Positions 16,283 through 37,056 of a stretch of DNA of 64,000 nt are shown piece by piece (positions within the stretch are counted from its first letter, which is position 1; the number at the start of each line of letters is the position of its first letter). The stretch comes from an uncultured Candidatus Saccharibacteria bacterium (GTDB lineage: Bacteria > Patescibacteriota > Minisyncoccia > Phycocordibacterales > CAYSCM01): positions 64,001-128,000 of the forward strand of contig CAYSCM010000001.1 of the NCBI GenBank assembly GCA_964429815.1. The letters run 5' to 3'. A model generated the notes under the pieces. That model made no database searches, was not told where the DNA came from, and saw nothing but the letters and a program-made list of their open reading frames with translations. Made by a program: the position numbers and the translations under genes.

Positions 16283-16310
16283 TTCCCGATACTACTTTAT
16301 TTTACTGAGG

Positions 16311-16392
16311 TGGGCGAGGGGAGAGTTGAACTCCCAATCCTTGCGGAATACGCTTCTGAGGCGTACGTGTATACCAATTCCACCACTCGCCC
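16311..16392 (-). tRNA. tRNA-Leu (anticodon CAG)
   Basis: Reverse complement GGGCGAGTGGTGGAATTGGTATACACGTACGCCTCAGAAGCGTATTCCGCAAGGATTGGGAGTTCAACTCTCCCCTCGCCCA. It has a 7-bp acceptor stem, an anticodon loop CUCAGAA, a long variable arm and a GTTCAAC T-loop. It is closely similar to E. coli tRNA-Leu. CCA is not encoded. Confidence 0.85.
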
Positions 16393-16544
16393 GTCTGTTC
16401 CATCCTACTCAAATATGAAAACGGGTCTAGCCGACATCAGACCGCGTGGGTCTCATTTAAAGGCGCCATCAATCCGATTTAAGCCTTCGACACACTGTTC
16501 TGTCAGCCGACTGGCGAGGGGCGGAAAAGCTGTACCGTCCTGTG

Positions 16545-16616
16545 TGCGAGTGGAAGGAATCGAACCTTCGACCTCTGTCTTATCAGGACAGCGTTCTACC
16601 ACTGAACTACACTCGC
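16545..16616 (-). tRNA. tRNA-Ile (anticodon GAT)
   Basis: Reverse complement GCGAGTGTAGTTCAGTGGTAGAACGCTGTCCTGATAAGACAGAGGTCGAAGGTTCGATTCCTTCCACTCGCA. Anticodon loop CUGAUAA. CCA is not encoded. Confidence 0.85.
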
Positions 16617-16923
16617 AATGAGGTGGATACTAGCAAGAGAGCGCCTCCCTATCAACAGCTCCCCCTTCATGCGGGGTGCGTTTGGTCGGTACAATGATGG
16701 TGGTTCCAGTAGAAAGGAGAGAACCTTTGTGCGGTTGGTCACGACGTACACTCAAACGGGATCGCGGTCGTAGCCGAGAAATTCGGTCAAAGCCCATCCA
16801 GGAGGAGCTTTCCCTGCTCACCCCGAATGTCTCACGTGTCCTTCCCGAAGCCACAGTCGCTCCACCGGCGAGTCGCTCCGCGCGGCTCCCCTCACAGCAG
16901 CGACTCGCTGAGCTCTATGCCGC

Positions 16924-16975
16924 AAGGAGGTGATCCAGTCGCGTAAGAGCCCTACCAAGGCGCTTACGACTACCG
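16924..16975 (-). rRNA. rrs: 16S rRNA 3'-terminal segment (degenerate helix-45-like hairpin + CUGGAUCACCUCCUU anti-SD), separated from the 16S body by a ~1.6-kb insert
   Basis: Minus-strand sequence GGUAGUCGUAAGCGCCUUGGUAGGGCUCUUACGCGACUGGAUCACCUCCUU. It has the exact anti-Shine-Dalgarno end, which the 16S body at 18529 lacks. Confidence 0.6.
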
Positions 16976-17029
16976 TTTTCGAACGTTCTTTCTTTCAAGC
17001 GCGCCGCGTTAGCGGCGCGCTTTCTATTC

Positions 17030-17057
17030 AAAAAAAGACCCGCTCTCAGAGCGGGTC
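17030..17057 (-). terminator. rho-independent terminator (GACCCGCUCUGAGAGCGGGUC + U7)
   Basis: Perfect 8-bp stem and U7, directly after the 146-aa membrane protein gene. Confidence 0.7.
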
Positions 17058-17069
17058 AGGTACGGGGGG

Positions 17070-17510
17070 TTATGCATCGTCGCGGTGACATAGCCGCAGG
17101 AGCGCACTAACGATGAGGACAGCTCCGAGGACGACCGGGGTGAACGCGGCGTTGAGTTCCCTATGGATGCCTAACCGGAGACCAATGAAGGTGACGACGA
17201 GGCCACCGAAGAACAGGATCGCGCTTTTCTCCACGTACGGGCTCCAGATTCGACAGAGGATGCCGCGCCATCCTCCCGTCATGAGAGCGGAAGCTACCAC
17301 CCCCAAGCTGTAGGAGGGAAAAGAATCCGTTTCCCGAACGAGGGCGTGGACGAAAAGCATGAGCCCGAGGAGAAAGACAAACGTGCCGAGTCCGATGATA
17401 AGCCGAGCCACGATGGACTCGCGAAGAACGCGAGGACGACTCCAATCGTGAAAAAGCTTGGTGGAGCGTTGAGACATGGATGGACCCTCCTTCTTTCGTC
17501 GTGATACCAC
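17070..17510 (-). CDS. hypothetical multi-pass membrane protein (146 aa), inside the 16S insert
   Basis: Strong SD (AAGGAGGG). 3-4 predicted TM helices. Followed by a terminator. Confidence 0.55.
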   Translation of the reverse strand: MVSRRKKEGPSMSQRSTKLFHDWSRPRVLRESIVARLIIGLGTFVFLLGLMLFVHALVRETDSFPSYSLGVVASALMTGGWRGILCRIWSPYVEKSAILFFGGLVVTFIGLRLGIHRELNAAFTPVVLGAVLIVSALLRLCHRDDA

Positions 17511-17561
17511 TCTTCCTGAGCCGCCGCAACCTGTGGAAAACCGTTACGCAAGAAGGCCGCC

Positions 17562-17771
17562 CTACGGGCGGCCTTGCGGCTTTTTCTCGGCGCGACAGAT
17601 AAAGACGCACAGTATCATAAGCGCGATCGCGATGATGATAAAGAGCGTCCCCGCCGGCAGCGCATGAACAGGTTTTCCGCGTTGGATGATGCCGCCGATG
17701 AGCGCGGCAAAGCCGGCACCGGCAAGAACGAGCGCGAAGAAAGCCGTTGTGAGATTCGCTGCCTTTTTCAT
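17562..17771 (-). CDS. small 2-TM membrane protein (69 aa), inside the 16S insert
   Basis: MKKAANLTTAFFALVLAGAGFAALIGG.... Its ATG overlaps the TGA of the upstream 41-aa ORF (ATGA). Confidence 0.45.
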   Translation of the reverse strand: MKKAANLTTAFFALVLAGAGFAALIGGIIQRGKPVHALPAGTLFIIIAIALMILCVFICRAEKKPQGRP

Positions 17772-17893
17772 GGGAGCCTCACGAGCGGTCCGTGGAAGTA
17801 GAGAAACACGTCGAGCGCCAAACTGAAAAAGAACAGGCTTAGCAGGATACGTTTCTTCCCGCTTGGGCCCGAGAACGCCTTGATGGGATGCAT
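17768..17893 (-). CDS. very small 1-TM membrane peptide (41 aa, MHPIKAFSGPSGKKRILLSLFFFSLALDVFLYFHGPLVRLP)
   Basis: Not in the ORF track (<60 aa). GGGAGGG SD 6 nt upstream. Translationally coupled to the next gene. Confidence 0.4.
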   Translation of the reverse strand: MHPIKAFSGPSGKKRILLSLFFFSLALDVFLYFHGPLVRLP

Positions 17894-17996
17894 GCTAGCC
17901 CTCCCTGGTACCTTGGCACATCCTAGCTAAAGAGGCATGCCGGCGCAATCTAAGAAGAGCGCCGCCGGTGGTGCCGGCGGCGTCGTGTCCCCACGA

Positions 17997-18251
17997 TCAA
18001 GGGAAGGTTCGGTCGATGAACGAGCCGAAGTAGCCGACGCCGAAGCCGAGTCCGAGGTACTGGAGCGGTCGGAGCGGTGCCTCGAGCATGTTGACGGCAG
18101 CGTAGGCGCCGAGCATCCAGGCTATACCTACCGTGAGCGCCCCGGCGGCCACGCCGGTCGCAACGTCACGGTACCAAGAGGCCTGAGCGTCCCACATGTG
18201 GTCGAGGCGCTCGAGTCCAGTGCGATAGTTCCGTAGGGTTCCGTCGGGCAT
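17997..18251 (-). CDS. small 2-TM membrane protein (84 aa), inside the 16S insert
   Basis: Strong SD (AAGGAGG) 6 nt upstream of ATG. Hydrophobic segments VATGVAAGALTVGIAWMLGAYAAV and YLGLGFGVGYFGSF. Confidence 0.5.
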   Translation of the reverse strand: MPDGTLRNYRTGLERLDHMWDAQASWYRDVATGVAAGALTVGIAWMLGAYAAVNMLEAPLRPLQYLGLGFGVGYFGSFIDRTFP

Positions 18252-18326
18252 AGGAACCTCCTTTCCTTTCCCGTCCCTGTTCTACCGAAGTTTTGCGCTC
18301 TACACAATGGCTTCCTCCCCATGCGC

Positions 18327-18356
18327 AAAAAAGCCCCTTATAAGGGGCTTTTTTGC
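18327..18356. terminator. palindromic bidirectional intrinsic terminator (AAAAAAGCCCCUUAUAAGGGGCUUUUUU)
   Basis: Perfect 9-bp stem with A/U tracts on both sides. It lies about 170 nt into the insert that follows the 16S body. Confidence 0.65.
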
Positions 18357-18528
18357 GTTGGTACCAGAGTCTCTTTTGTTCCGTTCAATATACCAGTACG
18401 CATTTCTGGAAAGCGAGCAGACTTTAAAGACATACTGCTATGGTCTACTTCCGTACTCGATCGAGATACAGAATATCGACCGGATAAGTCTTACCTTCCG
18501 AAGAAGGAGACAGTTCCGATTGGAATTA

Positions 18529-19980
<1,452 letters not shown>

Positions 19981-20386
19981 AATTCGTTGAACGGAACAAA
20001 AGAGAGGCTGGTACCTCCTTCTTGATTCCTTTTACCCGTCCGAGCCGCAAAGCGGTTAGGATTAGGGTTTTTTGATCAGACTACACCGCCCTGGTTGGCG
20101 GCTAATCTAGTTGAACAGATTTTGTCTGCTCGCACATAACGTTCTTTGATTATCAATGATCACTACCTCATTGGCCGTTCGCCTCAAGCGGATTAGGCCG
20201 AAACAAAAACCTGCCCAAGGCAGTGCAGACAGTATACGCAGAATTTGATGGGTGTCAAATGAAGGTCGCTCGCACACATCTTTTTGGAAACACGCATAAA
20301 ATAGGGCTTATTTTTGCTCCGCTCGCGCCGTCGCTCTGTGCGAGGTTTCCAAAAAGAGAATGCTCGCTCAAACAGGAAATGTAAAA

Positions 20387-20989
20387 TCAGATTGCGCCAC
20401 TCTGTGGAGGTTTTTTATTGAGATGTTGCCCAAAGAACGCCAGAGCTGTGATCGTTGTGTTGGCAAAAATCAAATAAATCGGATAAATCAGGTTAGCAAT
20501 ATCGAATTTTGTAGTCGAGACGGCAGCTAGAATTGCAGCGACGGCAATCATTGCCCACCCGAGAACGTTTTCTGAATAGGGCTCTCGATATGTCTTGGCT
20601 ATTGTCGGAATAGTCGAAATCAGGTCAGCCAGTACCGCTAGAATGAGCGCTACGAGAGGTTGTTTTGTAATTTGCCACAAACCTATAGCGATTATTGCTA
20701 GAGCAAAACAAGTATAATCAAGTGCCCCGTATTTTCTGTACCCATAACCAGACAAAGCAACAACAAGAATAAGCGCAGTGTTAAAAGTTGTTGTTATCAA
20801 GATTATGATGGACCACGATGCGCCGGCACTGAACTGAGCGGCTATGGCAATAATTTGTAGCGTGGTCCAAAGAACAAATGAAATTATATTTGGCCGAGTC
20901 GTACCCTTTATCATGCTTCTGACATAGGGGAAAACAGAGGCAATCTGGATTATTCCAGCAATAATTCCAACTACCGCATGCCAATCCAT
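20387..20989 (-). CDS. hypothetical integral membrane protein (~6 TM)
   Basis: Start placed at MDWHAVVGIIAGIIQ..., whose ATG overlaps the stop of secF. The upstream part of ORF 20387..21211 is antisense to secF. Confidence 0.5.
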   Translation of the reverse strand: MDWHAVVGIIAGIIQIASVFPYVRSMIKGTTRPNIISFVLWTTLQIIAIAAQFSAGASWSIIILITTTFNTALILVVALSGYGYRKYGALDYTCFALAIIAIGLWQITKQPLVALILAVLADLISTIPTIAKTYREPYSENVLGWAMIAVAAILAAVSTTKFDIANLIYPIYLIFANTTITALAFFGQHLNKKPPQSGAI

Positions 20990-20990
20990 C

Positions 20991-21893
20991 TTATTTCTTC
21001 TGCCAGCGCTCGATGGTGACGAGAAGTGGCGAGCCGAGGAAAATTGAGGAGTAGGTACCAGCGGCAATACCAATGAGAAGGGCAAGGGCGAAATTTTTGG
21101 TCGCCTCCGCGCCGAAAAAGTAAAGCGCGAGGAGCGAGAGGAGCACGGAGAGCGAGGTGTTGATCGAGCGATTAAAGGTCTGCGCAATACTCTTCCCAAC
21201 CGTAGTCCCAAACTCTTCCCGAATTCCCTGCTGGTGATTCACGCGGAGATTTTCACGCACGCGGTCGAAGACGACGATGGTATCGTGGACCGAAAAACCG
21301 AGCACCACGAGAAGCGCAGTGACAAAGAGCGTATCCACCTCAAACCCGGCATAGTGTCCGAGTATCGCAAATACCCCCGTTGGAATGATGACGTTATGGA
21401 TAAGCCCCACAATGGCGACCAATCCATACTTCCACGATGAAACAGGCTGCGACACCTTGCGAAACGCGAACGCGATGAAGAGGAGGATGGCCACGATGAC
21501 GAGCGCGACCGCGATCGTCGACTTGGTGCGAAGTTCCGAGCCGATCGTGGGGCCGATAGAGTTGTGCTGCTCACTCGTGATCTTCGCCGTCCCCCCGAGA
21601 GAAAGGGCGTTGAGAACTGCCACACGCTCTGGCTCTTGGAGATCTCGCGAACGAAGGATGTAACCATCGACTCCTGTGGGGCGCAGCGAGTAGGTTCCGA
21701 GCGTGAGAGTATTTAATTTACCCTCAGCCGCGGTTTTATCGGGCACTTGTCCCGCGTAGTGGACCTCTGTGAGAGCCCCGCCGGTAAAATCAATGCCGAG
21801 CTGAAGTCCAAAGAAAACAATCGCAAGGAGAGAGAGCCCCACCAGGACGGCGGAGAGGGCGTAGAAGAGTTTTCGATAAGTGATGACGAACAT
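20991..21893 (-). CDS. secF: protein translocase subunit SecF
   Basis: 300 aa. SecF signature LGIDFTGG, plus the FRKVSQPVSS... and ...GFSVHDTIVVFDRVREN blocks typical of the SecD/F family. Confidence 0.9.
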   Translation of the reverse strand: MFVITYRKLFYALSAVLVGLSLLAIVFFGLQLGIDFTGGALTEVHYAGQVPDKTAAEGKLNTLTLGTYSLRPTGVDGYILRSRDLQEPERVAVLNALSLGGTAKITSEQHNSIGPTIGSELRTKSTIAVALVIVAILLFIAFAFRKVSQPVSSWKYGLVAIVGLIHNVIIPTGVFAILGHYAGFEVDTLFVTALLVVLGFSVHDTIVVFDRVRENLRVNHQQGIREEFGTTVGKSIAQTFNRSINTSLSVLLSLLALYFFGAEATKNFALALLIGIAAGTYSSIFLGSPLLVTIERWQKK

Positions 21894-21895
21894 AG

Positions 21896-23281
21896 CTAGA
21901 ATTTGAACCCGTTACCAAAGAGTGCTCGCACTGCGCCCTTGTTTTCCCGGTGAAGAAGGCCGAGCGCATAAAGGAAGGTACGGCTTATAGAGACCGCGGT
22001 AAACATCGAGACGAGGACCCCGACCCCGAAGACAAGCGCAAAACCTTTAATAACCGCTGTGCCGCCAAGCCAGTAGAGGATAAAGGCGGTAATGATGGAA
22101 GAAATATTTGAGTCGCGGATTGAAGGCCACGCACGCGCAAAGCCTTCACGGATGGCTTCACCGAGCTTGTGTCCACGATTGAGCTCCTCTTTCATACGCT
22201 CGAATATGAGAATGTTCGCGTCAACCGCCATACCGACAGAGAGAATGAATCCTGCGATGCCGGCCGCAGTGAGCGTCACCGGGATGATCTTAAAGAGCGC
22301 GAGCATCATGACGACGTACATTCCGAGCGCCAGAATAGAGATGAGGCCGGGGAGGCGGTACCACAGGAGCATGAAGAGGGCGACGGCAAGGAAGCCGAGT
22401 TCGCCCGCATAGACACTCTTAGCTGCTGCCGCTTCTCCGAGCGAGGCACCGATCGTTTGAGTCCCGATAAGGGAAATGGGTACAGGGAGCGCGCCGAAAT
22501 TGAGGCTCTGCACAAGATCGCGCGCCTCGGTCGGCGTAAAGTTCCCGGAAATCGTCGCTTTACCACCAGTGATGGCCTCGCGGATGACTGGGGTCGATAT
22601 CGGTACGCCGTCGAGGAAAATGCCCAGTACGCCGCCTACATGCTCGCGCGTAATCTTTTCAAAAAGCGCCGAACCTTCCGCATTGAATTCGATCGACACG
22701 ATCGGTTGATTAATGTTCGCGCCACCCTGCCCTGTCCCGAAATTGAGCGTTGCGCGGGAGAAGAGGCGCCCGGTGAGGCCGGTGTCCGTGAAGGCCGAGT
22801 TGACGTCGAAAGTTTTGGCCTCTGAGGAGCCCGGCTCCGGTATCTTCGCGTCCGGCTTCATGAGCTTGAACTCAAGGAGAGGCGTCTTGCCGATGGCGAA
22901 AATCGCGGCGTTTACGTCCGTGACGCCAGGAAGCTCGACGATGAGGCGGTTCTCGGAGACGCCGGAGAGCGCGCTTGCGCGCTCCACCTGCACGAGAGGC
23001 TCCGAGACACCGAAAGCATTTACACGGCTCTCAATGACGGTGCGCAGCACTTCCATCGATGGTCCAATGTCGCCGGAAGCAACCTTTTTGGTGTCGGCTT
23101 TGTAGACGAGATGCGACCCGCCCGAGAGGTCGAGGCCGAGCTTAAAGGCGAAGCGCCCCGGGGAAAGCTGGGAGTGATAGACGAAGTAGCCGACCGCAAT
23201 CCCTGCGATGAGTATTAAAATGGCACTGACGCGCTGCCATACCATGGGGGTGAGCTTAGCAGAAAACCCTACCGTATGCAC
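21896..23281 (-). CDS. secD: protein translocase subunit SecD
   Basis: 461 aa. LGLDLSGG, periplasmic domain, and C-terminal six-TM domain with GxxxDANIL motif. The true start may be the internal MVWQRVS at 23245. Confidence 0.9.
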   Translation of the reverse strand: MHTVGFSAKLTPMVWQRVSAILILIAGIAVGYFVYHSQLSPGRFAFKLGLDLSGGSHLVYKADTKKVASGDIGPSMEVLRTVIESRVNAFGVSEPLVQVERASALSGVSENRLIVELPGVTDVNAAIFAIGKTPLLEFKLMKPDAKIPEPGSSEAKTFDVNSAFTDTGLTGRLFSRATLNFGTGQGGANINQPIVSIEFNAEGSALFEKITREHVGGVLGIFLDGVPISTPVIREAITGGKATISGNFTPTEARDLVQSLNFGALPVPISLIGTQTIGASLGEAAAAKSVYAGELGFLAVALFMLLWYRLPGLISILALGMYVVMMLALFKIIPVTLTAAGIAGFILSVGMAVDANILIFERMKEELNRGHKLGEAIREGFARAWPSIRDSNISSIITAFILYWLGGTAVIKGFALVFGVGVLVSMFTAVSISRTFLYALGLLHRENKGAVRALFGNGFKF

Positions 23282-23286
23282 TACTG

Positions 23287-24231
23287 CTACAGGAGCTCCT
23301 GGGTTTGTGTGAGACCTTCGATAAGCGTATGTCGAGGCACGTATCCGAGAATCTTTTTTGCCTTAGATATATCGGCAAAGCTGTGTGGGATATCTCCAGG
23401 GCGAGAGGGCGCAAAATGAGGCTCGATAGAGGTTCCAAGCACGGTGTTGATGGTCGCCACAAGTTCGCGAAGGTTCGTCCGCTCCAGCCCCCCCACATTG
23501 AAAACCTCGCCCGCGATACCCTCTTTCTCTGCCGCCAAGATATTTGCAGCCACGGCGTCGGAGACGTAGGTGAACGAGCGGGAAGCTGACCCATCGCCAT
23601 AAATAGTCGGCCGTTCCCCGGCCTTCATAAGTTTAATGAATTTGGGAATTACCGCGGAATACTCTGAATTCGGATCCTGCCGCGGCCCATAGATATTAAA
23701 ATAGCGTAGGGAGACAGTTTCGAGCCCGAAAAGCGAATAAAATTGTTTTGCGTACACCTCCCCGAGATATTTCTGCGCAGCATAGGGAGAAAGAGGATTG
23801 GGAGGCAAATCTTCGACCTGCGGTAGCACGGGCGTGTCGCCATAGTAGGAACTTGATGCGGCATACACCACTCGCTGGACGCCCGTGTCGCGGGCCGCGA
23901 GAAGTACCTGGAGCGTTCCCGTCGCATTCGCCTCATGCGAGGTAAGCGGGTCCCGTACGCTCTTGGGAACGGACGGTACCGCTGCCTGGTGGAACACAAC
24001 ATTAGCGCCCGAGAAAACGCGGGCGAGAGCGCCGAGGTCGAGAATGCTCGCCGGTATGAATTCGATACGGTCGGCAACACCTTTAAGATTTTCTGCACTA
24101 CCTGTTGATACGTCATCGACCACTCTGACGGTATACCCGCGCAACAGAAGCTCTTCAACGAGATGCGAACCAATGAATCCCGCACCTCCTGTTACCACAG
24201 CTCTTTTCATGGTAGGTGTAACGACCTTCAT
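23287..24231 (-). CDS. NAD-dependent epimerase/dehydratase (UDP-hexose/HexNAc 4-epimerase-like)
   Basis: AVVTGGAGFIGSHLVEELL, YAAQKYLGE (YxxxK), and extended-SDR C-terminus. The likely start is the internal MKRAVVTGG at 24210. Confidence 0.8.
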   Translation of the reverse strand: MKVVTPTMKRAVVTGGAGFIGSHLVEELLLRGYTVRVVDDVSTGSAENLKGVADRIEFIPASILDLGALARVFSGANVVFHQAAVPSVPKSVRDPLTSHEANATGTLQVLLAARDTGVQRVVYAASSSYYGDTPVLPQVEDLPPNPLSPYAAQKYLGEVYAKQFYSLFGLETVSLRYFNIYGPRQDPNSEYSAVIPKFIKLMKAGERPTIYGDGSASRSFTYVSDAVAANILAAEKEGIAGEVFNVGGLERTNLRELVATINTVLGTSIEPHFAPSRPGDIPHSFADISKAKKILGYVPRHTLIEGLTQTQELL

Positions 24232-24236
24232 GCGGC

Positions 24237-25586
24237 CTACGTTCCACTTCTCGAGAGAAGTGCGCGTACGGTCTTAAGGGCAATGTGGAAATCAAGCACG
24301 AGTGAGCGGTGTTTTACGTAGTACAAGTCGTAGGAGAGTTTCCGCGCTGTTTTTTCAACGTCAACGACACCCCGGGGGGCATCGTAGTCATTGATCTGTG
24401 CCCAGCCGGAGAGACCTGGCTTCACCAGGTGTCGGGCGTTGTAGAGAGGTAATTCTTTTTCGTAGGCCCTAACCAACGTGGGGATCTCCGGACGAGGCCC
24501 GATGAGAGAGAGCTCACCCCGTAAGACATTCAAGAGCTGGGGAAACTCGTCGATACGTGATTTGCGCAGTACTTTTCCCGCCTCCGTGATACGGTTTTTC
24601 TTGTGAAGCTCAGGATCGCCGTGATCATCAAAGAGCCAAGAGCGGAATTTCATGAGCTCAAAAGAGCGGTTATTCTGTCCGACCCTCTCCTGAGATATAA
24701 AAAGCGGCCCCGAGGAAGTTACTCTCAGTGCGATCGCGCCTCCAAAGCAAAATGGGAGCGCGATGACACCCGCAATGAGTGCCACCACGATGTCCATCGC
24801 ACGCTTGAGCGCGTCATACGCACTATGCCGATCGCGAATTTCTTCAGTGAGAAGCTTGGTTTCGTCGATGAGTGTAAGCGGCACACGCTGAAAGAGGTCC
24901 TCAAAGAGCGTCGCAGTATCGATAAAACGCGTACCCTCGAACACTAACGCGGAAAAATCGCGCGCGTACGGGGAAAGTTTCTCGTGGTGCGCATCGAATA
25001 CAATGACCCGAGGCCTTTCTTGGCGCGCACGCGCGAGAATTTTTTTTGCATCGAAGGCGCTCGCGGAGATTTTGTCTTTAAGGATGATGCCGTGTCGTGG
25101 ATTATGTGTGAGCTCATGCGCTATCGCATCTATCTCCTTTCCCTCCCCAATGAGATACGCTGTCACAGGTACCCGAGGTCGAAGCTTCGGGACAATGAGA
25201 AGTCGCCAGAAAAGAATACTCCCCACAGATACACCGAGGTAGATGAGAAGTGTCGTCTTCGGAGCAATACCAAACCAAGGAGCAAAGAAAAAGAACAAGG
25301 CGGCAATGATGACATTCGCGACTTGGGCCTGGACAATCGCTAGCGGCATGCGCTCAACCACCGCGAGAGTGCGACGCTCGTAGAGCTCAAGAATGAAAAA
25401 AACCCCTATCCAAACGAGAAAGAGGAACGAAAACGGCACAAGATGTTGCAGGAAAACGGCTCCGGTCGGAAACGAAAAGGTCCTCAAATAGAGGGATAGC
25501 CATAGGGACGCGACAAAACAAAAAACGTCTCCGAGGAGGAGCACGAAGGTGCCGGTGTGCCGAAGCCGCATGGTCACACCATACAA
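24237..25586 (-). CDS. polyprenyl-phosphate hexose-1-phosphate transferase (bacterial sugar transferase, WbaP/WcaJ-like priming enzyme)
   Basis: 449 aa. Multi-TM N-terminus. C-terminal Bac_transf motifs GPLFISQERVGQNNRSFELMKFRSW, DEFPQLLNVLRGELSLIGPRP, KPGLSGWAQIN. Confidence 0.85.
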   Translation of the reverse strand: MYGVTMRLRHTGTFVLLLGDVFCFVASLWLSLYLRTFSFPTGAVFLQHLVPFSFLFLVWIGVFFILELYERRTLAVVERMPLAIVQAQVANVIIAALFFFFAPWFGIAPKTTLLIYLGVSVGSILFWRLLIVPKLRPRVPVTAYLIGEGKEIDAIAHELTHNPRHGIILKDKISASAFDAKKILARARQERPRVIVFDAHHEKLSPYARDFSALVFEGTRFIDTATLFEDLFQRVPLTLIDETKLLTEEIRDRHSAYDALKRAMDIVVALIAGVIALPFCFGGAIALRVTSSGPLFISQERVGQNNRSFELMKFRSWLFDDHGDPELHKKNRITEAGKVLRKSRIDEFPQLLNVLRGELSLIGPRPEIPTLVRAYEKELPLYNARHLVKPGLSGWAQINDYDAPRGVVDVEKTARKLSYDLYYVKHRSLVLDFHIALKTVRALLSRSGT

Positions 25587-25649
25587 CGATTTAGCTCTTA
25601 CACAAGTTACCTATGTGGAGCGCTACCTCGTGGTAGCCTTTTATAAACT

Positions 25650-26762
25650 ATGAAGGTTCTCTATGTCATCACAAAAGGTAATTTTGGAGGCGCCCAGCGC
25701 TACGTGTTTGAGTTGGCGGTTGAAGCAAAACGTCGAGGGCATGATGTGACTGTCGTTTACGGGGAGCCCGGCGTATTGATCAAGAAGCTAGCAGGGGCCT
25801 ACATACGGACAATTTCCCTTTCTACTCTTCAGAGAAACATCAATCCCCTCAAAGAGATCGGGAGTTTCATTCGCCTTGTGTCCCTCATACATTCATTACA
25901 TCCTGATGTGGTCCATCTCAATAGCGCCAAAGCCGGAGGACTCGGCGCCCTCGCCGCTCGCGTGATGGCAGTACCACGAATTGTTTTCACTGTTCATGGC
26001 TGGCCCTTTAACGAAGAACGGCTATGGGTTGACAACATGGTCCGGGCTTTGTTGCAGTGGCTTACGGTGATGCTAACGCATGTAAGCATTGTCGTTGCAG
26101 AGAGCGACAAAAAGCAGGTCGCTCACTGGCCCTTTGTGCAGAAGAAAATAGTGTGCATTCATAATGGCGTTGGCACCATAGATTTTCTTGAAAGGAGCAC
26201 CTCGCGCGCAAACCTTTTATCTACGCACGTCGAGAAATTCTGGATCGGAGCACATACCGAAAACAAAAATAAGGGCATCGACTTTCTTTTGAAAGCCTAT
26301 GCGCGCGCCCGGGAAAAACTTTCTTCCGCGATCATCGTACTTTTCGGCACAGGGCCGGAAGAGTCCAATCTTAAACGCCTCACACGGGAGTTAGGGATCG
26401 AGGATAAGGTTTTTTTTCTTGGATTTTTAGATAATGCACGAGCGTACCTTAAAGCTTTCGATGTTTACACCATTCCCTCCCGTAAAGAAGGATTGCCGTA
26501 TTCACTCCTCGAGGCCGGCGCGGCGGGACTCCCGGTCGTTGCGAGCCGGGTGGGAGGCATCCCCGAAGCAGTAACCGACACGCAAAGTGGTTTTCTCACA
26601 GCCCCTGGCGATGTAGTACTTCTTTCAGCCAGGCTCGCAGAGCTCATAGAAAGCGAACCGCTGCGCGAAAAATTTGGACAGGCCTTGCGAGCGAAAGTTG
26701 AAAAAGAATTCTCTCTTTCTCACGTGTTTGAAAAAACATTTGCTCTCTACTCACACCCCTAG
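25650..26762 (+). CDS. glycosyltransferase family 4
   Basis: 370 aa. Glyco_trans_4-like N-terminus (KGNFGGAQRYVFELA) and C-terminal PSRKEGLPYSLLEAGAAGLPVVASRVGGIPE motif. Convergent with rodA, overlapping its 3' end by 12 nt. Confidence 0.8.
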   Translation: MKVLYVITKGNFGGAQRYVFELAVEAKRRGHDVTVVYGEPGVLIKKLAGAYIRTISLSTLQRNINPLKEIGSFIRLVSLIHSLHPDVVHLNSAKAGGLGALAARVMAVPRIVFTVHGWPFNEERLWVDNMVRALLQWLTVMLTHVSIVVAESDKKQVAHWPFVQKKIVCIHNGVGTIDFLERSTSRANLLSTHVEKFWIGAHTENKNKGIDFLLKAYARAREKLSSAIIVLFGTGPEESNLKRLTRELGIEDKVFFLGFLDNARAYLKAFDVYTIPSRKEGLPYSLLEAGAAGLPVVASRVGGIPEAVTDTQSGFLTAPGDVVLLSARLAELIESEPLREKFGQALRAKVEKEFSLSHVFEKTFALYSHP

Positions 26763-27902
26763 AAACTCTTTCCCGATATCGTCGCGGTGGAAGGCCCTGC
26801 TGTAGGCTCGCTGTCCCATCAAAATGCCGAGCCCCATATACTCGGTGAGGAGGTGTGAGCCGCCGTAGCTCATGAAGGGAATGGTGATGCCGGTCACCGG
26901 CAAGAGCCCGATGTTGAAACCGATGTGAATGATGAGGTGACTCAAGAAGTACACCGCAAGGCCAGCTGCAAATAAGGTCTCAAAATTACTCTCCCCGTGC
27001 ATAGCGGTCGCGATGATACGCCACAAAATAATCCCGTAGAGGATAAAGAGCAGAAGAACGCCAACAAATCCCCACTCTTCGGCGAACGCTGCGAAGATAA
27101 AGTCCGTTTGATACTCAGGGAGAAACTGCAGCCGGCTCTGGGTTCCGTAACCAACCCCCTTCCCCACAAGCCGTCCCGAGCCGACCGCGATCGTGGACTG
27201 GTAGGCATTGTAGCCGGCGCCGCGAATGTCGGTGAGGGGGTGAATGAACGTGAGGACGCGCTGCTTCTGGTATGGCCGGAGTGCAAAGAGCCACATGCCC
27301 GCCGCTATCACGGCCGCGACCAGAAAGACCGTGAGAAGATGACGAAGCGATATCCCCGCAACGAGGACCATCCCGAGCCATATGGTGCCGATGATGATGG
27401 CCGAACCGAGATCAGGCTGGAGAAAGATGAGGACGAAAGGAACGAGCGTATACGCGCCAGAGAGGAGGATGTGCCGGATGTGTGCTATTTCCACATGCCG
27501 ACGCGAAAAATACTTGGCGAGGACTATGATGAGCACGAGCTTCATCGGGTCGGCGGGTTGCAGCGCGAATGAACCGAAGTTGAAGCGAGCCTGAGCGCCC
27601 TTAGCGATGGAGCCGAACACGAAAATGAGGAAGAGCAGCGCGATGGCCGCGACGTAGAGCGACGCGATAACGGAGGTGCGCCGCAGGAAGTGATAGTCGA
27701 AGAGTGCGAAAATGAAAAAGCTCGCAAGCGCGAGCGCTATCCAGACAAGCTGTTTGTTGAAGAAGTAATTCTCCGCCCCGAAGGAATTCATCGTAAAGAG
27801 GCCTGCCGCGAGGATGGGGAGCGTCGAGAGGAGGAGCACCCAGTCGATACTCTGCCGTATGTTCGTGAAAAAACGGCGTCCTCGGGCGATGGTAGCGGCC
27901 AT
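26751..27902 (-). CDS. SEDS-family peptidoglycan glycosyltransferase (RodA/FtsW)
   Basis: Start MAATIARGRR.... 10 TM helices. C-terminal FIFAAFAEEWGFVG and GLLPVTGITIPFMSYGGSHLLTEYMGLGIL blocks characteristic of the FtsW/RodA/SpoVE family. Confidence 0.85.
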   Translation of the reverse strand: MAATIARGRRFFTNIRQSIDWVLLLSTLPILAAGLFTMNSFGAENYFFNKQLVWIALALASFFIFALFDYHFLRRTSVIASLYVAAIALLFLIFVFGSIAKGAQARFNFGSFALQPADPMKLVLIIVLAKYFSRRHVEIAHIRHILLSGAYTLVPFVLIFLQPDLGSAIIIGTIWLGMVLVAGISLRHLLTVFLVAAVIAAGMWLFALRPYQKQRVLTFIHPLTDIRGAGYNAYQSTIAVGSGRLVGKGVGYGTQSRLQFLPEYQTDFIFAAFAEEWGFVGVLLLFILYGIILWRIIATAMHGESNFETLFAAGLAVYFLSHLIIHIGFNIGLLPVTGITIPFMSYGGSHLLTEYMGLGILMGQRAYSRAFHRDDIGKEFLGV

Positions 27903-27904
27903 GA

Positions 27905-28666
27905 TCAGAGAGGCCTGACCCGGACCTTCACATCGACCGTAGTCGAGGTCGCTGTAAACGGACGAGGCCACGTGAAGGTGAGCGTGTTACTCCCCTGCGC
28001 AGGGAGCTCTCTCACGACCGTGCGGGACGCCGCCATTGCATTGCCGTTTTCGTTGAAGATAACCGCGGTCGCCTCGATGCTTTGTATCGGCCGAAGTGAG
28101 GTGTTGCTGATGGTCACCGTGAGCTTGGGAGAGGCGCCCGCCTCGGAAAGTCCTCGCTCCCCTATCAAAATACTTTTAGCAGGATCGTCGGCTAGGGTGA
28201 AATTTTGTACGGGCGAAAATTCGAAGAAGGTGCGCGAGGGGGTTCGATTCCCCGTCGTTATGCCCGGTTCAACGATGACGTTAACCTGGCCTGGCGAGAG
28301 GAATGTGGTCCCCTTACGCTCCACGACGAGGATGTTTCCCTCATCGTAGAGCTTGAAATCGTAGGGAAAGGAGAGAACAGCACCGCTCTCATTGGGATTG
28401 TTGACGTAGGCGATCGCCGTCCACACCCCCGGCGTTACCTCGACGGAGCGTGCCCACATGACCGTGGCTGGGGATGTTTTGAAGGGGCAGATTTTCTTGC
28501 AAGCGCCACCGCAGTCAATTCCCTCTTCCCTGCCATCTTGTCTGCCGTCGGAGCAGGTCGGCGCCGTGGAGAGGAGTGAGTACGCGATACCCCCAAAAAG
28601 AAGCAGAAGAACGAGTAGTATGCCGCTTACGTAGAGGCCCTTGCGGCGATTAGCCCAGGCTGACAT
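27905..28666 (-). CDS. hypothetical signal-anchored extracytoplasmic protein
   Basis: ORF 27905..28699. Start moved to MSAWANRRKGLYVSGILLVLLLLFGG because the upstream 33 nt lie inside a terminator hairpin. Its stop abuts the rodA start, suggesting an operon with rodA. Confidence 0.5.
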   Translation of the reverse strand: MSAWANRRKGLYVSGILLVLLLLFGGIAYSLLSTAPTCSDGRQDGREEGIDCGGACKKICPFKTSPATVMWARSVEVTPGVWTAIAYVNNPNESGAVLSFPYDFKLYDEGNILVVERKGTTFLSPGQVNVIVEPGITTGNRTPSRTFFEFSPVQNFTLADDPAKSILIGERGLSEAGASPKLTVTISNTSLRPIQSIEATAVIFNENGNAMAASRTVVRELPAQGSNTLTFTWPRPFTATSTTVDVKVRVRPL

Positions 28667-28682
28667 GGGAAGAATAGTAACA

Positions 28683-28713
28683 CGAAAAAAACACCTCACT
28701 TTGAGGTGTTTTT
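28683..28713. terminator. bidirectional intrinsic terminator (A7-ACACCUCA-CUU-UGAGGUGU-U7) ending the 23S-5S transcription unit
   Basis: Perfect 8-bp stem flanked by A7 and T7. Confidence 0.7.
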
Positions 28714-28730
28714 TTGACTTTTAAATCCCC

Positions 28731-28880
28731 TAACCTGGCGGCTACCTACTCTCCCCTTGCGAGTACCTAGCGGCGTAGCGGGCTGAAAGCGAGGGTTCGC
28801 AGCTTTCAGAGCCGCAGGCCTGTTCGAGGCCGAGGCGGGGTCACGCATAAAATGCAGCAGCATTTTATGCGTGACTAACG
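28731..28880 (-). repeat. divergent 5S rRNA-like copy. Its 3' 37 nt are identical to the canonical 5S. It carries an internal ~35-nt extra hairpin, and its 5' part is replaced by a perfect palindrome (GUCACGCAUAAAAUGC-AGCAGC-AUUUUAUGCGUGAC).
   Basis: 28731-28767 equals 28914-28950 exactly. Upstream of that the copy diverges, though the CCUCGAACAGGCC segment still resembles 5S (UUCCGAACACGGCC). Confidence 0.5.
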
Positions 28881-28913
28881 GCATGTCCCGTCCAAAATGT
28901 TAGTTAGAAACTA

Positions 28914-29024
28914 TAACCTGGCGGCTACCTACTCTCCCCTTGCGAGTACCATCGGCGCTAGCGGGCTTAACGGCCGTGTTCGGAATGAGAACGGGTGTTT
29001 CCCCGCCGCCAAACCACCAGATTA
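28914..29024 (-). rRNA. rrf: 5S ribosomal RNA (canonical copy)
   Basis: Reverse complement UCUGGUGGUUUGGCGGCGGGGAAACACCCGUUCUCAUUCCGAACACGGCCGUUAAGCCCGCUAGCGCCGAUGGUACUCGCAAGGGGAGAGUAGGUAGCCGCCAGGUUA. Very similar to Bacillus-type 5S. Confidence 0.85.
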
Positions 29025-29073
29025 TAAATTCCAACTATTTTCGATCTCTAAGTGTGACATTTTGGACGGATTC

Positions 29074-29119
29074 TCGGAATGAGAACGGGTGTTTCCCCGC
29101 CGCCAAACCACCAGATTAT
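29074..29119 (-). repeat. 46-nt perfect direct repeat of the 5S 5' half (partial 5S copy) in the 23S-5S spacer
   Basis: 29074-29119 is identical to 28980-29025. Confidence 0.6.
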
Positions 29120-30388
29120 GAGATTCAAAAAGTCGGGTTCGGCAGCCGACTTCCTCGATAGGATGAGGAAGATCGGCTGCCGCCCGCGCAAGGACGTGAG
29201 CAGTTGAGCGGGGCGCTCCTCCCGAGCGGCCACCATTCCCATCGCAGTGCTAAAGCGCTTCTTAGAATGGTCGCGGAGGGCGACACCATTCCAGCTCCGC
29301 AAAGGGTCCGTGCACGCTTCTTTCCCACGTCCGAAAAGCGAAAACAAAGAACTTAACGTTTCGAAGCGTCCGAAATCCGGGTAGATTTCGGCCACCAGTA
29401 AAACGTCAAGCGGGTTAAAAAAGTAACGAAAATCATATTCAATCAATTGCGACATGCAGATTCCCTGACAGGAAACTCGACGTATTAGTACGCCTCGGCT
29501 CAATCCGTTGCCGGACTTCCACCTGGCGCCTATCAACGTAATAGTCTCTTACGGGTCTCAACGAGTCCTCATCTCAGAGTTGGCTTCTTGCTTAGATGCT
29601 TTCAGCAATTATCCATGCCGAACTTAGCTACGCAGCGTGCTTCTGGCGAAACAGCTGCCACACCAGAGGTTCGTCCATTCCGGTCCTCTCGTACTAGGAA
29701 CAGATCTCTTCAAGACTCAACGCCCATGGTAGATAGGAGACCAACCTGTCTCACGACGGTTTGAACCCAGCTCGCGTATCTTTTTAATTGGCGAACAGCC
29801 AAACCCTTGGGACCTTCTCCAGCCCCAGGATAAGATGAGCCGACATCGAGGTGCCGAACGGTACCGTCGCTATGGACGCTTGGGTACCACTAGCCTGTTA
29901 TCCCCAGAGTAGCTTTTGTCCGATAATCTTCCCCCGCATCTAATGCGTAAGGTCGGTTCACTTTGCTCCGCTTTCGCGCCTGCTCGGCATGTACGCCTTA
30001 CAGTCAAGCTCCCTTTTGCCAATACACTATCGGCACGGTTTCCATTCGCGCCTAGGGAACCTTAATAGACTCCTCCGTTACTCTTTAGGAGGATAGCGCC
30101 CCACTAAAACTGCCTGCCATGCAGTGTCCCTCATCGTTTTTGCCGACGAGGTTAGAGACTATATGTTGTCAGGATGGTATTTCACTGGCGAGTCCACACT
30201 CCCCGGAAGGAATGCTTCAACCTCTCCCATCTATGCTGCGCAGAAAAAACATAGCCCCACTACAAAGCTACAGTAAAGCTTCTGGGGTCTTTTCGTCTAA
30301 CCACGGGTAACCGGCATCTTCACCGGTATTGTATTTTCACCAGGCTGATCCTCGAGACAGTCCCCCAGTCGTTACACCATTCGTGCAC

Positions 30389-30428
<40 letters not shown>

Positions 30429-31156
30429 GATTATAGTTATCGCCGACATTCACCAGGGCTTGCATAGCCCAGCACTACACATAAATGCATAGCACCATCC
30501 ATGCTTGACCTTCTGGCATTGGTCAGGTGTCACCCCCTATACATCCTCTTACGAGTTCGCAGGGAGCTGTGTTTTTGGTAAACAGTCGCCAGGAGTACTT
30601 TCGCTGCGGCCCCGCCGACTTGCGTCGAAAGGGCAGGCCTTATTGCTAACGTACGGCCGCTTTTTTGCCGAGTTCCTTGAGGATCAATCACCTGTTCGCC
30701 TTGGTCTACTCGACCTGACCACCTGTGTCGGATTACGGTACGGTCTCGTGTTTGTTATGCTTAGAGATTTTTCTTGGAAGCGTGCTCCCATGCGTAAATC
30801 CTCCGTAGAGGATCTCCCCGTGATGCTCGGACTTGCGACTCCCGGATTTTCCTAGAAGTCATCCTCACACCCCAGACACCAATCCAATAAGATGCGCATA
30901 GTACAACCCTTCGTCCTCTCATCGCACAAACACAAGGTCATGGAATATTAACCATGCATCCATTAGGTACGGCTTTCGCCATCCCCTTAGGACCGACTAA
31001 CCCTTGGCTGATCTTCATCGCCAAGGAAACCTTGGTCTTTCGGCGTGGGGGAGTCTCACCCCCATTGTGGTTACTCGTGCCGGCATTCTCACTTCGCAAC
31101 GCTCCACGCTCAGTTACCCTCGCGCTTCATGGCGGATGCGAACGCTCTCCTACCGC

Positions 31157-31340
31157 GTTATGTGTTTCGTTGAGGAGCCGAGGATGGCTCCTCGGCTATT
31201 AGTCTTCTTCGTCGTTATAGATGAACGGTATAGGTCCAAACATTGACCAGACCGCGACCGCAATGACGTAGATTGCAAACCAGTCGTCTTCCAACATGGC
31301 TTCACCTCTTTTGTACTTTCCTCAACGAAACACACAACAC
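31157..31340 (-). other. 23S rRNA intervening sequence (IVS) in helix 45: ~184-nt insertion closed by a 20-bp stem
   Basis: gttatgtgtttcgttgagga (31157-31176) pairs with tcctcaacgaaacacacaac (31319-31338). Located immediately 5' of the conserved GGGUAGGAGAGCGUUC, the classical helix-45 IVS site. Confidence 0.65.
31199..31297 (-). CDS. 32-aa hydrophobic peptide ORF inside the 23S IVS (MLEDDWFAIYVIAVAVWSMFGPIPFIYNDEED)
   Basis: ATG preceded by AAAGAGGUG at a 6-nt spacing. Single predicted TM helix. Not in the ORF track (<60 aa). Confidence 0.3.
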   Translation of the reverse strand: MLEDDWFAIYVIAVAVWSMFGPIPFIYNDEED

Positions 31341-31417
31341 CCTCAGTTTCGGTACAACGCTTAAGCCCCGATTATTTCCGGCGCAAGATCTCTCGATGAG
31401 TGAGCTGTTACGCTTTC

Positions 31418-31449
<32 letters not shown>

Positions 31450-32106
31450 TCATTGTCAGAGAAATTTCACCTCCTTAAGATGCACTGAGCGTTGATTTTG
31501 GGACCTTAACTTGAGATCTAGGCTCTTCCCTTTTTGACCACCGGAGCTTAGCCCCCGGAGTCTAACTGCGTGGTAGTGGAGAACGGTATTTGGAGTTTGA
31601 TAGGATTGACGAGCTTTCGCCCTATTCAATCCTTCCAGTGCTCTACCCCCGTTCTATAAACCACACGCCAGCCCAAAAGCTGTTTCGGAGAGAACCAGCT
31701 ATTACCAGGTTCGATAAGCTTTTCACTCCAACCCACAAGTCATCCGAATGCGTTGAACGACATACCGGTTCGGGCCTCCCCACTCCTTTCGGAGTGGTTC
31801 ACCCTGCTCATGGGTAGCTCACCTGGCTTCGGGTCGTATACGCGCTACTTAGTCGCGCTATTCACACTCGCTTTCGCTACGGCTTCGTCCGACAAAGGAC
31901 TTAGCCTCGCAACGCGCATACACTCGCCGGCTCATTCTTCAATAGGCACGCGGTCACCCGGAAGGATAGAAGCACCCAAGACTAGCCGATGGGTCGTTGC
32001 GGACGCATTGACCCTGTCGAACATGCTTCGATGCTTGTACCCTCCCAGGCTCCCACTCCTTGTAAGCATAGGGGTTCAGGTCTATTTCACTGCCCTCACC
32101 GGGCTT

Positions 32107-32146
<40 letters not shown>

Positions 32147-33192
32147 TTTGAGAATATTTAGCTTTACCGGTCAGTTCCGGCAGGTTCACCCAAGCTAACC
32201 GTGTCTTGGGCTACTCAAGAACAGAAACAAAGAAGAGTCATCATTTTCGTGTACGGGACTGTTACCCCCTGGGGTTTCGCGTTCCAGCGAATTCCACTAA
32301 CAATGACTTTTGTAACTTCTCTTGCATAAATGCAACGTCTCTGCCTTACAACCCCCACTCTCTTGCGAGAATAGGTTTGAGCTCATCCCTCTTCGCTCGC
32401 CGCTACTAAGGGAATTCCAAGAATTTCTCATACGTGGGACGCAGAGACGTCACACATATGAAAAATTCGTTATTGGTTTTTCTTCCTCCAGGTACTGAGA
32501 TGTTTCACTTCCCTGGGTGCGCATCACACACATACGTGTGGATTCTCATCGTAGATGAGAGAGTTTCCTCATTCGGAGATCTCCGGATCAAAGGTTGCTT
32601 AGCACCTCCCCGAAGCTTATCGCAGCTAGGCTACGTCCTTCATCGCTTCTCAAAGCCAAGGCATCCGCCCTATGCTCTTAGGTTTCCTGTCCGGAAACCT
32701 GCAAACCACAATTGTTTGATTGATTTTGATTACTTTACATTACCCACCTCGATTCTCCTTCGAAGAAACGAGGTTCGAATCACGTGATTTGGGTCACGCG
32801 ATTCTCCCACCTCAAACACCCAAAGACCCCAATTTTCGCACATGGGATACGATGTTTTGATGGAATGCAGTTTTCAAAGACTCACACGTGCTCTTGAATT
32901 ATGGAACTTCGCTCCATGCTTCCTTCGCTCGTCCGGAAATGAGAATGCGATTCTCGTTTCTCTCACTTCGCTAGGAAGTAAAAAATCCGCTCTGAAGCGG
33001 ACCGTTGGCTAACCGTATACACGGAATTACCCCCGCCGCTTGCTTTTAAAGCTGATCGAATAATTCATACACGTGGGGAGAGTATATGCCGGAGAGCCCT
33101 ACCTTGTCAAACCGAGGCTGTACTGAGAAAACACCAAGGAAAAGGGCCGCCTTGGGGGCGACCCTGCGCGCGAGCAAGATTCAGCGAGATCC

Positions 33193-35927: not shown

Positions 35928-36419
35928 TTAGGCGGATTTAGCCTTCGCAATCTCGTTGAGAGCGATCACGAAGCGCTGAATCGGCGAGTTGATAAGATTG
36001 ACGAACATTCCATGAAGTACTGGTGTCGGGGGAATGGTGGCGATAGCCATCATCTCTTCCTTTCCTTTGAACGCACCTTTAAAGATACCCCCCACGATCG
36101 CGAGATTTTCCTTGAACTTCTTCGCAAACTGAAAGACCTCGCGCGCGGGGGCGACAGCGTCCGCGCCATAGGCGAGGGCTATCTCTCCTTCGAGCTTGGG
36201 CATTTCTCCTTCGTACTTCCCTTTTTCAAGGGCCTTGCGCACAAGCGTCTTTTTTGCGACGGTATAGCCTATCCCCGCGCTGCGGAGCGTCCTGCGCATC
36301 GCGGTCGTGTCCGCGACTGTGAGTCCCTTGAAGTGGACGAACGCGATAGATTCCGCGTTTTTAGCGATTTCCTCAACTCTCTTGAGGACATCGCCTTTCT
36401 TCTTTTTGCTGATTGCCAT
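35928..36419 (-). CDS. rplJ: 50S ribosomal protein L10
   Basis: 163 aa starting MAISKKKKGDVLKRVEEIAKNAESIAFVHFKGLTV. The ORF-track N-terminal extension to 36782 is spurious. Confidence 0.9.
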   Translation of the reverse strand: MAISKKKKGDVLKRVEEIAKNAESIAFVHFKGLTVADTTAMRRTLRSAGIGYTVAKKTLVRKALEKGKYEGEMPKLEGEIALAYGADAVAPAREVFQFAKKFKENLAIVGGIFKGAFKGKEEMMAIATIPPTPVLHGMFVNLINSPIQRFVIALNEIAKAKSA

Positions 36420-36534
36420 TTTTAGAAATAAAAAAGGCCAGTTAATCCCGGCTGAGTTCGACCACTGCGCAGGTACCTGTCGGATTATCCCTTTCTTAGG
36501 GGCCCTGCGGTCCTTGAGGCCAGGTGGGCTGATA

Positions 36535-37056
36535 TTAGCGAGGAAGCGAGGAGGAGTCAAATGTCTCGCCCTCCCCCGCCTCCTGCTTGAGGCGCTCTGC
36601 GCGCCAGCCGACCATATTGGCAAGAAGCTGGAAGAGGGTACCGACCGCGGAGATGGCAAGGACAAAAATCGGGAACCACGCAAAGGGAGTGAGGAAGTAG
36701 AAGAAGCAGATGAAAAGACCCGCCCAGATCCCGAAGCACCACGGACACGCGAGGAGCTCGGCGATGGTGCGCCGCGGCCCATGGGCGGGCTTCTCCCGCA
36801 CGATGACGTACTCCCCCTCCTCGGTCTGTCCTATCTCCTTATCCAAAAACCAGTCCCGGACGAACTGGGTTATTTTGTCGTAGACGAAGAGACGTGTCGC
36901 GCGGAACGTCGCGAGCGCGATGAGTATCGCATCGAACAAAGAAACGGAGACAGGCAAAAGGTCGATCTTGTAGAGGATGTAGCCAAGCCCAAAGAAAACG
37001 ACGCCAAAAAAGAGCGTGAAGATAAAGTTCCAGAACCCCTGGTCATCTTGGTACAT
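36535..37056 (-). CDS. DUF1360 domain-containing membrane protein
   Basis: 173 aa. LLACPWCFGIWAGLF motif characteristic of DUF1360. 4 TM segments. Confidence 0.75.
   Translation of the reverse strand: MYQDDQGFWNFIFTLFFGVVFFGLGYILYKIDLLPVSVSLFDAILIALATFRATRLFVYDKITQFVRDWFLDKEIGQTEEGEYVIVREKPAHGPRRTIAELLACPWCFGIWAGLFICFFYFLTPFAWFPIFVLAISAVGTLFQLLANMVGWRAERLKQEAGEGETFDSSSLPR

Follow-up and report, generated by a model that had tools for sequence, protein, structure and literature searches.

A helix-45 intervening sequence in the 23S rRNA gene of a Parcubacteria bacterium: a probable member of a recurrent rRNA-operon hairpin type with a candidate hydrophobic mini-ORF

A long hairpin inside a bacterial 23S rRNA gene, with a short ORF for a hydrophobic peptide in its loop, raises the question of whether an rRNA transcript may also carry a small gene, or whether the ORF is there by chance. 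Such a locus is found in the window, i.e. the whole stretch of 64000 nucleotides that was analysed, and its setting is given by the following rRNA genes:

29465..32691, (-) strand: 23S rRNA gene hosting the insertion (Rfam RF02541, 2468 bits, full-length model 1-2925)
28916-29021: 5S rRNA gene, after the 23S gene (Rfam)
18519-19980: 16S rRNA gene, unlinked, 9 kb beyond 23S-5S

The RodA protein, which is encoded 3 kb from the 23S gene, is matched best, at 55-65% identity, by proteins from metagenome-assembled genomes of Parcubacteria/Paceibacteria, and the 23S-5S-RodA order is kept in the genomes with these matches; the host is a Parcubacteria (CPR) bacterium, which is also present in the run SRR12313479. 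The initial annotation had placed the insertion at the classical helix-45 site, and an Rfam alignment of 30950-31560 bears this out: every inserted base lies between positions 1218 and 1219 of the LSU model, in the hairpin loop directly 5' of GGUAGGAGAGCGUUC, and this hairpin is helix 45. From anchor to anchor, helix 45 measures ~193 nt in the window compared with 30-37 nt in relatives with a plain hairpin. It is practically certain that the window insertion is a helix-45 intervening sequence (IVS) of a Parcubacteria 23S rRNA gene, and its parts are, in the order of the rRNA strand:

31155..31340, (-) strand: helix-45 intervening sequence, whole extended hairpin (Rfam alignment, folding)
31319..31340, (-) strand: closing stem, 5' arm GUGUUGUGUGUUUCGUUGAGGA (pairing)
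31319-31337, (-) strand: part of the 5' arm that corresponds to the type consensus, UUGUGUGUUUCGUUGAGGA (16/19 identical)
31298..31318, (-) strand: purine-rich leader AAGUACAAAAGAGGUGAAGCC, predicted unpaired, 21 nt (folding)
31302-31309, (-) strand: SD-like AGAGGUGA in the leader
31199..31297, (-) strand: ORF of 32 codons plus UAA, ATG start, MLEDDWFAIYVIAVAVWSMFGPIPFIYNDEED
31196-31198, (-) strand: second in-frame stop, UAG, directly after the UAA
31177..31196, (-) strand: 8-bp GC-rich stable hairpin GCCGAGGA-GCCA-UCCUCGGC, adjoining the 3' arm (folds)
31155..31176, (-) strand: closing stem, 3' arm UCCUCAACGAAACACAUAACGC (pairing)

The closing stem consists of 22 continuous base pairs (31319-31340 with 31155-31176), including two G.U pairs, which makes the insertion an extended stem-loop with approximately two turns of dsRNA. 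A long closing stem had been recognized from the outset, but as 20 bp and with a start at 31157, whereas the pairing comprises 22 bp and reaches 31155. Folding of 31140-31360 gives an MFE of -88 kcal/mol (z = -5.8), a stability that none of 200 shuffles reached. Positions -20 to -9 of the leader have unpaired probabilities of 0.6-1.0, the AUG of the ORF is predicted to pair within a local hairpin, and the cassette as a whole replaces the native helix-45 hairpin on three closing base pairs. No match to the Rfam group I intron family (RF00028) was found in the window at the gathering score, and a search of 31150-31345 for RNA families gave nothing relevant in Rfam at E <= 5. A group I intron reading of the insertion was rejected, as it has no catalytic core.

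In its position the insertion agrees with the RNase III-excised helix-45 IVSs of Salmonella, other Enterobacteriaceae, Leptospira and Coxiella and with the short insertions at the CPR sites 23IS2 and 23IS4 (Tsurumaki et al. 2024, PMC11270868), and it is likewise an extended hairpin with a long dsRNA stem and a patchy distribution among close relatives. Excision by RNase III has been demonstrated for the Coxiella helix-45 IVS (PMC4990558), whereas cleavage is predicted here; the window also differs in a stem sequence that is common to intron and spacer hairpins of related organisms, and in a loop with a 32-aa hydrophobic ORF, where the loops of known helix-45 IVSs contain nothing or an S23p gene. 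CPR 23S genes often have short non-intron insertions at the known IVS sites, which have been judged to be probable IVSs of the RNase III type (PMC11270868), and a helix-45 insertion in such a gene is an already described kind.

The patchy occurrence is evident from the relatives, with helix 45 plain in 12 of the 17 that could be read and extended in the other five by insertions of 102-448 nt, which are unrelated to one another and to the window insertion. The nearest relative found (L083/L084; 23S 90-97% identical, adjacent protein 53% identical) has a plain helix 45 without the window insertion; it has the other 23S expansions of the window, plus two introns that the window lacks. As this relative is without the insertion, we regard the latter as a recent lineage-specific gain or loss, which is usual for IVSs. 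A 22-mer from the 5' flank of helix 45 gave no matches in contigs of species-representative genomes, so that the source genome and its close relatives either are absent from these representatives or have a different 23S sequence at this point. A homologous insertion was absent among the relatives' loci and in one metagenome scan, and when the insertion and the peptide were compared by blastn and tblastn with 1.1 Mb of relatives' loci plus the window, nothing beyond the stem arms was returned.

A hairpin at this site might also stay part of the mature 23S rRNA and form an expansion segment on its surface, in which case the ORF would be irrelevant. CPR rRNAs do carry many lineage-specific insertions, and the other insertions of this 23S gene (near 229, 310 and 583) are common to the nearest relative and look stable. 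The insertion at helix 45, however, is absent from that relative and has a perfectly paired helix of 22 bp at the site where RNase III-type IVSs classically lie, and the same stem type encloses, elsewhere, tRNAs that must be released to function, all of which makes retention rather improbable. As to the other insertions themselves, the segments 32313-32344 and 32441-32472, close to positions 229 and 310 of the LSU model, show 72% complementarity and may form a helix with each other, and one of ~80 nt lies at the helix-25 site (model position 583, about 31967-32046); judged from their continuous alignment with L083, those near 229, 310 and 583 look like stable expansions.

The most informative feature of the insertion, which the initial annotation had missed, is that its stem belongs to a recurrent hairpin type. 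The first member came to light when metagenomic sequences were scanned for the two 12-nt stem tops. The one contig found, L081, has these arms at the base of a 184-nt hairpin, which lies in the P6 extension of a group I intron within a CPR-like 23S gene. Hairpin-type stems in the relatives' loci are 19-20 bp long, with the consensus 5'-UUGUGAAYUUYRNNGAGGA and a complementary 3' arm, and members were found only in rRNA operons, distributed as follows:

Group I intron P6 extensions: L020, L025 (x3), L043, L048, L056, L064, L071, L074, L081, L083
23S-5S spacer: L030, L043, L045
Helix-45 insertion: L013 and the window

The intron members lie between the conserved core segments ACCGAGGGAAG and AGAGACU. 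The window stem (UUGUGUGUUUCGUUGAGGA) is identical at 16 of 19 positions both to the type consensus and to the stems of L081, L083 and L020, and its two outer differences from the consensus are compensated in the 3' arm. When the 17 hairpin-type stems were aligned, 98.5% of the cells paired, compared with 41-50% in slid registers used as a control, and 13 of the 19 pairs showed changes on both sides, so that covariation of the closing stem, which the initial annotation had proposed as a check, is indeed seen. The covariation score of these stems was 0.60 against 0.30 in shuffles. Pairing over the first 11 positions holds by construction, because complementary 11-nt arms were the criterion by which members were collected; columns 12-19 were not used in this way, and there all non-identical pairs are compensated or G.U in the rRNA-sense strand. 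Judged from these alignments, the window stem is very probably a member of the type; the sample of hairpin-type members is small. In viral contigs the arm pattern matched three times, never with a stem beyond the forced bases; these matches are chance, which argues against a phage origin.

In both helix-45 members, the window and L013, the cassette replaces the native hairpin on two to three closing pairs. In the nearest relative, L083, a stem of this type, TTGTGAATTTTGTTGAGGAGG, occurs in an intron that is absent from the window, which suggests that the module was swapped between sites. CPR rRNA group I introns are known to carry homing-endonuclease ORFs in P6 and other loops, whereas the window has no intron and the hairpin stands alone; the P6-extension stems of L081, L083 and L020 nevertheless match the window stem as described above and have loop ORFs or tRNAs at the same place, and the LAGLIDADG ORFs in the introns of L013 and L021 start at the same loop position as the window ORF.

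Three copies of the stem occur in L025 (5547-5737, 6370-6471 and 7735-7788), all with TTGTGAACTTCA, and two in L043 (720-872 and 1299-1556), both with AGTTTT. The copies within either of these genomes resemble one another more closely than they do the copies of other genomes, a pattern that may point to gene conversion, to a recent duplication or to co-evolution with some host factor. In L081, three group I intron matches stand in tandem in 1-1575 (Rfam 82, 47 and 37 bits), immediately following the point of the 23S gene that corresponds to ~1930 of the LSU model.

The interiors of these hairpins were compared in the same way. A common layout, read in the rRNA sense, consists of the stem, a short leader, a variable cargo and, adjoining the 3' arm, a small stable hairpin; the window shows this layout, as do at least 10 of 13 folded members overall, and the arrangement with the hairpin distal to the cargo recurs in L081, L025, L071, L074, L064, L056, L045 and L030. 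In two members the cargo is a tRNA. The first lies in the loop of L056 (231-304 within the hairpin 195-371; Rfam 64 bits), whose insertion is at the 2936/2937 intron site; here an intron loop within an rRNA gene would itself enclose a tRNA, which ARAGORN assigns to Asn, with AUU as an odd anticodon. The second lies in the 23S-5S spacer of L045 (1606-1677 within the hairpin 1560-1734; 34 bits). tRNA genes in 23S-5S spacers were seen in L045, L083 (7491-7566), L064 (955-1111) and L020 (8348-8422); that of L083 is a tRNA-Ala(CGC), where the corresponding spot of the window (~29330-29390) has only a hairpin, and that of L064 has the anticodon UUA, which would read a stop codon.

In three other members the cargo takes the form of a TM mini-ORF that starts 26-40 nt into the hairpin, with 32 aa in the window, 41 aa in L081, where the hairpin contains GAGGAG-N6-AUG and the ORF is of membrane type, and 30 aa in L025. 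The L025 peptide, MFNEEENEMYYILMALPIVLLIGLVVLLNN, has an acidic N-terminus and no Lys or Arg, as in the window peptide, and both it and the L081 peptide have a hydropathy of 3.0-3.1. The codon LLR of the L025 ORF (0.426; GC3 0.80) is host-like and is reached by 1.6% of non-coding segments. The 41-aa peptide of L081 has no homologue and no match in Pfam or NCBIfam. The loop ORFs of L074 (82 aa) and L071 (48 aa) do not look coding, several hairpin-type loops are without recognizable cargo or credible ORF, and the helix-45 insertion of L013 is an ORF-less simple extended hairpin, unlike the interior of the window insertion.

Other small ORFs with good ATG or SD contexts were seen in 23S insertions of the relatives, namely a 67-aa ORF after AAGGAG in L019 (~4290-4495) and an 82-aa basic ORF after AGGAGG in L063 (~400-650), both without a Pfam match, a 79-aa ORF in L074 (~1070-1310) and a 61-aa coiled-coil-like ORF in L012 (~590-780).

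ORFs borne by IVSs had been cited as known, and our own set contains one: the 448-nt helix-45 insertion of L035 (4797-5287), which is closed by a long stem of different sequence, encodes a 23S_rRNA_IVP protein (PF05635, 97.6 bits). This S23p family, known from Leptospira and Coxiella, is likewise encoded by an rRNA-sense ORF nested in a helix-45 IVS, but S23p is a soluble helical-bundle protein of ~120 aa, whereas the window ORF has 32 codons and a hydrophobic product without a Pfam match. An S23p-type IVS protein was rejected for the window, since its ORF had no PF05635 match when the L035 ORF served as the positive control.

The 32-aa ORF and a single hydrophobic stretch with acidic ends are present and read exactly as first reported. 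The mean Kyte-Doolittle hydropathy of the peptide is 2.07 over 15 residues and 1.94 over 19, and aromatic residues stand at both ends of the stretch. The peptide has no Lys or Arg and a net charge of approximately -7, and Gly-Pro-Ile-Pro lies within the hydrophobic stretch; the absence of Lys and Arg and the internal Gly-Pro-Ile-Pro are both unusual for a membrane anchor and count against a coding reading. A phmmer search of 1.84 billion representatives recovered only the peptide itself and one spurious 3116-aa match, in a 15-billion-protein collection it forms a singleton cluster on two contigs, and neither Pfam (even at E <= 10) nor NCBIfam gave a match. A captured fragment of a host membrane-protein gene was rejected, tblastn in the window giving only insignificant matches.

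The sequence AAGAGGUGA, which sits 4 nt upstream of the AUG, had been taken as an SD. The motif is present, but what it was held to say about translation did not survive comparison with the host. The host 16S rRNA ends in GGAUUAAUUCC with the 3' tail GGAUUAAUUCCAAU and has no CCUCC (window 18519-18560), the consensus being GGAUCACCUCCUUU; an SD-like motif lies upstream of only two of 39 long host ORFs, and no purine enrichment was found at -12 to -6 of host genes. Loss of the anti-SD has been described in about half of Parcubacteria (PMC9297842). As the host has no anti-SD and SD motifs are rare in its genes, AAGAGGUGA is not evidence of translation here, and a functional SD-led gene was rejected on the same grounds. 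Host gene starts instead have C at -1 in 15 of 24 cases and at -2 in 11 of 24, and the CC-AUG context of the window ORF fits them.

We then asked how readily such an ORF would arise by chance, using 20000 dinucleotide-preserving shuffles of the 142-nt interior of the insertion. A sense ATG ORF of at least 32 aa appeared in 9.5% of shuffles, and in 3.2% it also had an SD-like motif; it was also TM-like in 0.06%, and SD-like and TM-like together in 0.01%. In the insertions of relatives' rRNA genes, TM-like ORFs of 22-60 aa occur at approximately one per 10 kb per strand (four sense and five antisense in 39 kb). The codon usage of the window ORF is gene-like, with an LLR of +0.397 per codon compared with 0.30+-0.19 for host genes and with -0.38 and -0.94 for the other two frames of the region. 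This score is reached by 0.4% of off-frame stop-free segments, by 3.5% of all non-coding-frame stop-free segments, antisense included, and by none of 60 spurious ORFs inside rRNA genes; among TM-like non-coding segments it is reached by five of 30 (17%), so that discrimination is weaker there. A score based on synonymous codons only was uninformative at 32 codons.

These data bear directly on the reading that the insertion is the same helix-45 IVS hairpin with an ORF that is fortuitous or a decaying remnant, its loop being filler or an RNA-only element from which no peptide is made. The peptide is an orphan, the nearest relative is without the insertion, and an ORF of this length is not rare in shuffles; TM-like small ORFs lie on both strands of similar insertions, one in six TM-like non-coding segments equals its codon score, the SD is meaningless in this host, and a credible ORF is absent from several hairpin-type members. 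There is also a precedent, as the excised IVS RNA of Coxiella is rapidly degraded and its ORF is apparently untranslated and decaying (PMC4990558). The low frequency of TM-like ORFs in shuffles and a codon score above those of all the spurious ORFs inside rRNA genes nevertheless speak against chance, as do the strongly hydrophobic ORFs at the same cassette place in L081 and L025, the latter with host-like codons, and an interior that is not a simple extended hairpin, in contrast with the ORF-less insertion of L013. A fortuitous ORF is thus a serious possibility. The host-like codon usage and the match of the stem to the recurrent hairpin type favour a real gene, and on this sequence evidence the chance that the window ORF is a genuinely coding mini-gene appears even.

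If the ORF is coding, its product might be the toxin of a type I toxin-like addiction or selfish module that stabilizes the insertion and is checked by the closing stem or by an antisense RNA. Like type I toxins and the bacterial small membrane proteins of <50 aa, the window peptide is short and has a single hydrophobic stretch with aromatic residues at either end, and its ORF lies in a strongly structured RNA with paired 5' and 3' ends and with the start codon sequestered in a local hairpin; IVSs and introns are, moreover, regarded as selfish elements (PMC4990558, PMC11270868). The resemblance to type I toxins that had been suggested initially is not supported, as it extends to hydrophobicity alone: the peptide has no match to a toxin family in Pfam or NCBIfam, and a sigma-70-type scan (CPR promoters may differ) found no promoter-like site on the antisense (+) strand of the insertion, nor was an antisense partner found. 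A peptide without basic residues and with a charge of about -7 is also unlike known type I toxins, and co-transcription with rRNA would give very high, unregulated levels of toxin mRNA, so that we consider this explanation very unlikely.

We give an even chance to the best reading, in which the insertion is a helix-45 IVS of the RNase III type that has the form of a cargo cassette with a peptide mini-mRNA. While the rRNA matures, RNase III would cut the two-turn dsRNA stem, as it does in other helix-45 IVSs; the 23S rRNA would then consist of two pieces, and an RNA of ~150 nt would be released. The small GC-rich hairpin would protect the 3' end of this RNA, which could then act as a mini-mRNA, translated, like the other genes of the host, without a Shine-Dalgarno interaction; its product would be a small membrane peptide.

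A wider hypothesis covers the hairpin type as a whole, and we put it forward tentatively and with considerable doubt. The rRNA operons of Parcubacteria may contain conserved-stem hairpin cassettes that are moved or swapped between helix 45, intron P6 loops and the 23S-5S spacer, and that would serve as RNase III-cut release modules with a 3' hairpin protecting the freed RNA and with tRNAs or mini-mRNAs as passengers. The window cassette would then express a 32-aa acidic-ended membrane micropeptide from an rRNA transcript, in a host without SD-based initiation. Peptide mini-genes in the sense strand of rRNA genes are exemplified by the pentapeptide 'E-peptide' of E. coli 23S rRNA and by mitochondrial humanin and MOTS-c; these lie in the conserved rRNA body, whereas the window ORF lies in a dispensable, probably excised cassette.

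The kind of insertion is known, and its cassette form is new. In the literature we found no description of a hydrophobic mini-ORF as the content of a helix-45 insertion, of a conserved stem linking helix-45 insertions, intron P6 loops and spacer hairpins, or of tRNAs nested in such hairpins, and PMC11270868 makes no mention of hairpins, inverted repeats or transmembrane ORFs. Should the cassette reading be true, the rRNA transcripts of these bacteria, whose genomes are tiny, would also be platforms from which tRNAs and micropeptide mRNAs are expressed, one processing stem would link IVSs, intron peripheral loops and spacer hairpins, which have so far been treated separately, and the locus would offer a concrete case, open to testing, in which a bacterial rRNA gene expresses a protein-coding ORF from its interior. 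Should the ORF be only chance, the finding would be one more CPR helix-45 IVS, an already described phenomenon.

In addition, we noted some features of the surrounding region. The rRNA gene order is unusual (window 16309-32691), with all elements on one strand in the order 23S-5S, ~9 kb of protein genes (RodA, glycosyltransferases, SecD and SecF) and 16S, followed after a further ~1.9 kb by tRNA-Ile(GAU) and tRNA-Leu(CAG); no insertions were found in the 16S gene of the window. The gene for ribosomal protein L10 (window 35928-36782) has a longest ORF of 284 aa, of which only residues 127-279 match L10, and its true start is probably internal to that ORF.
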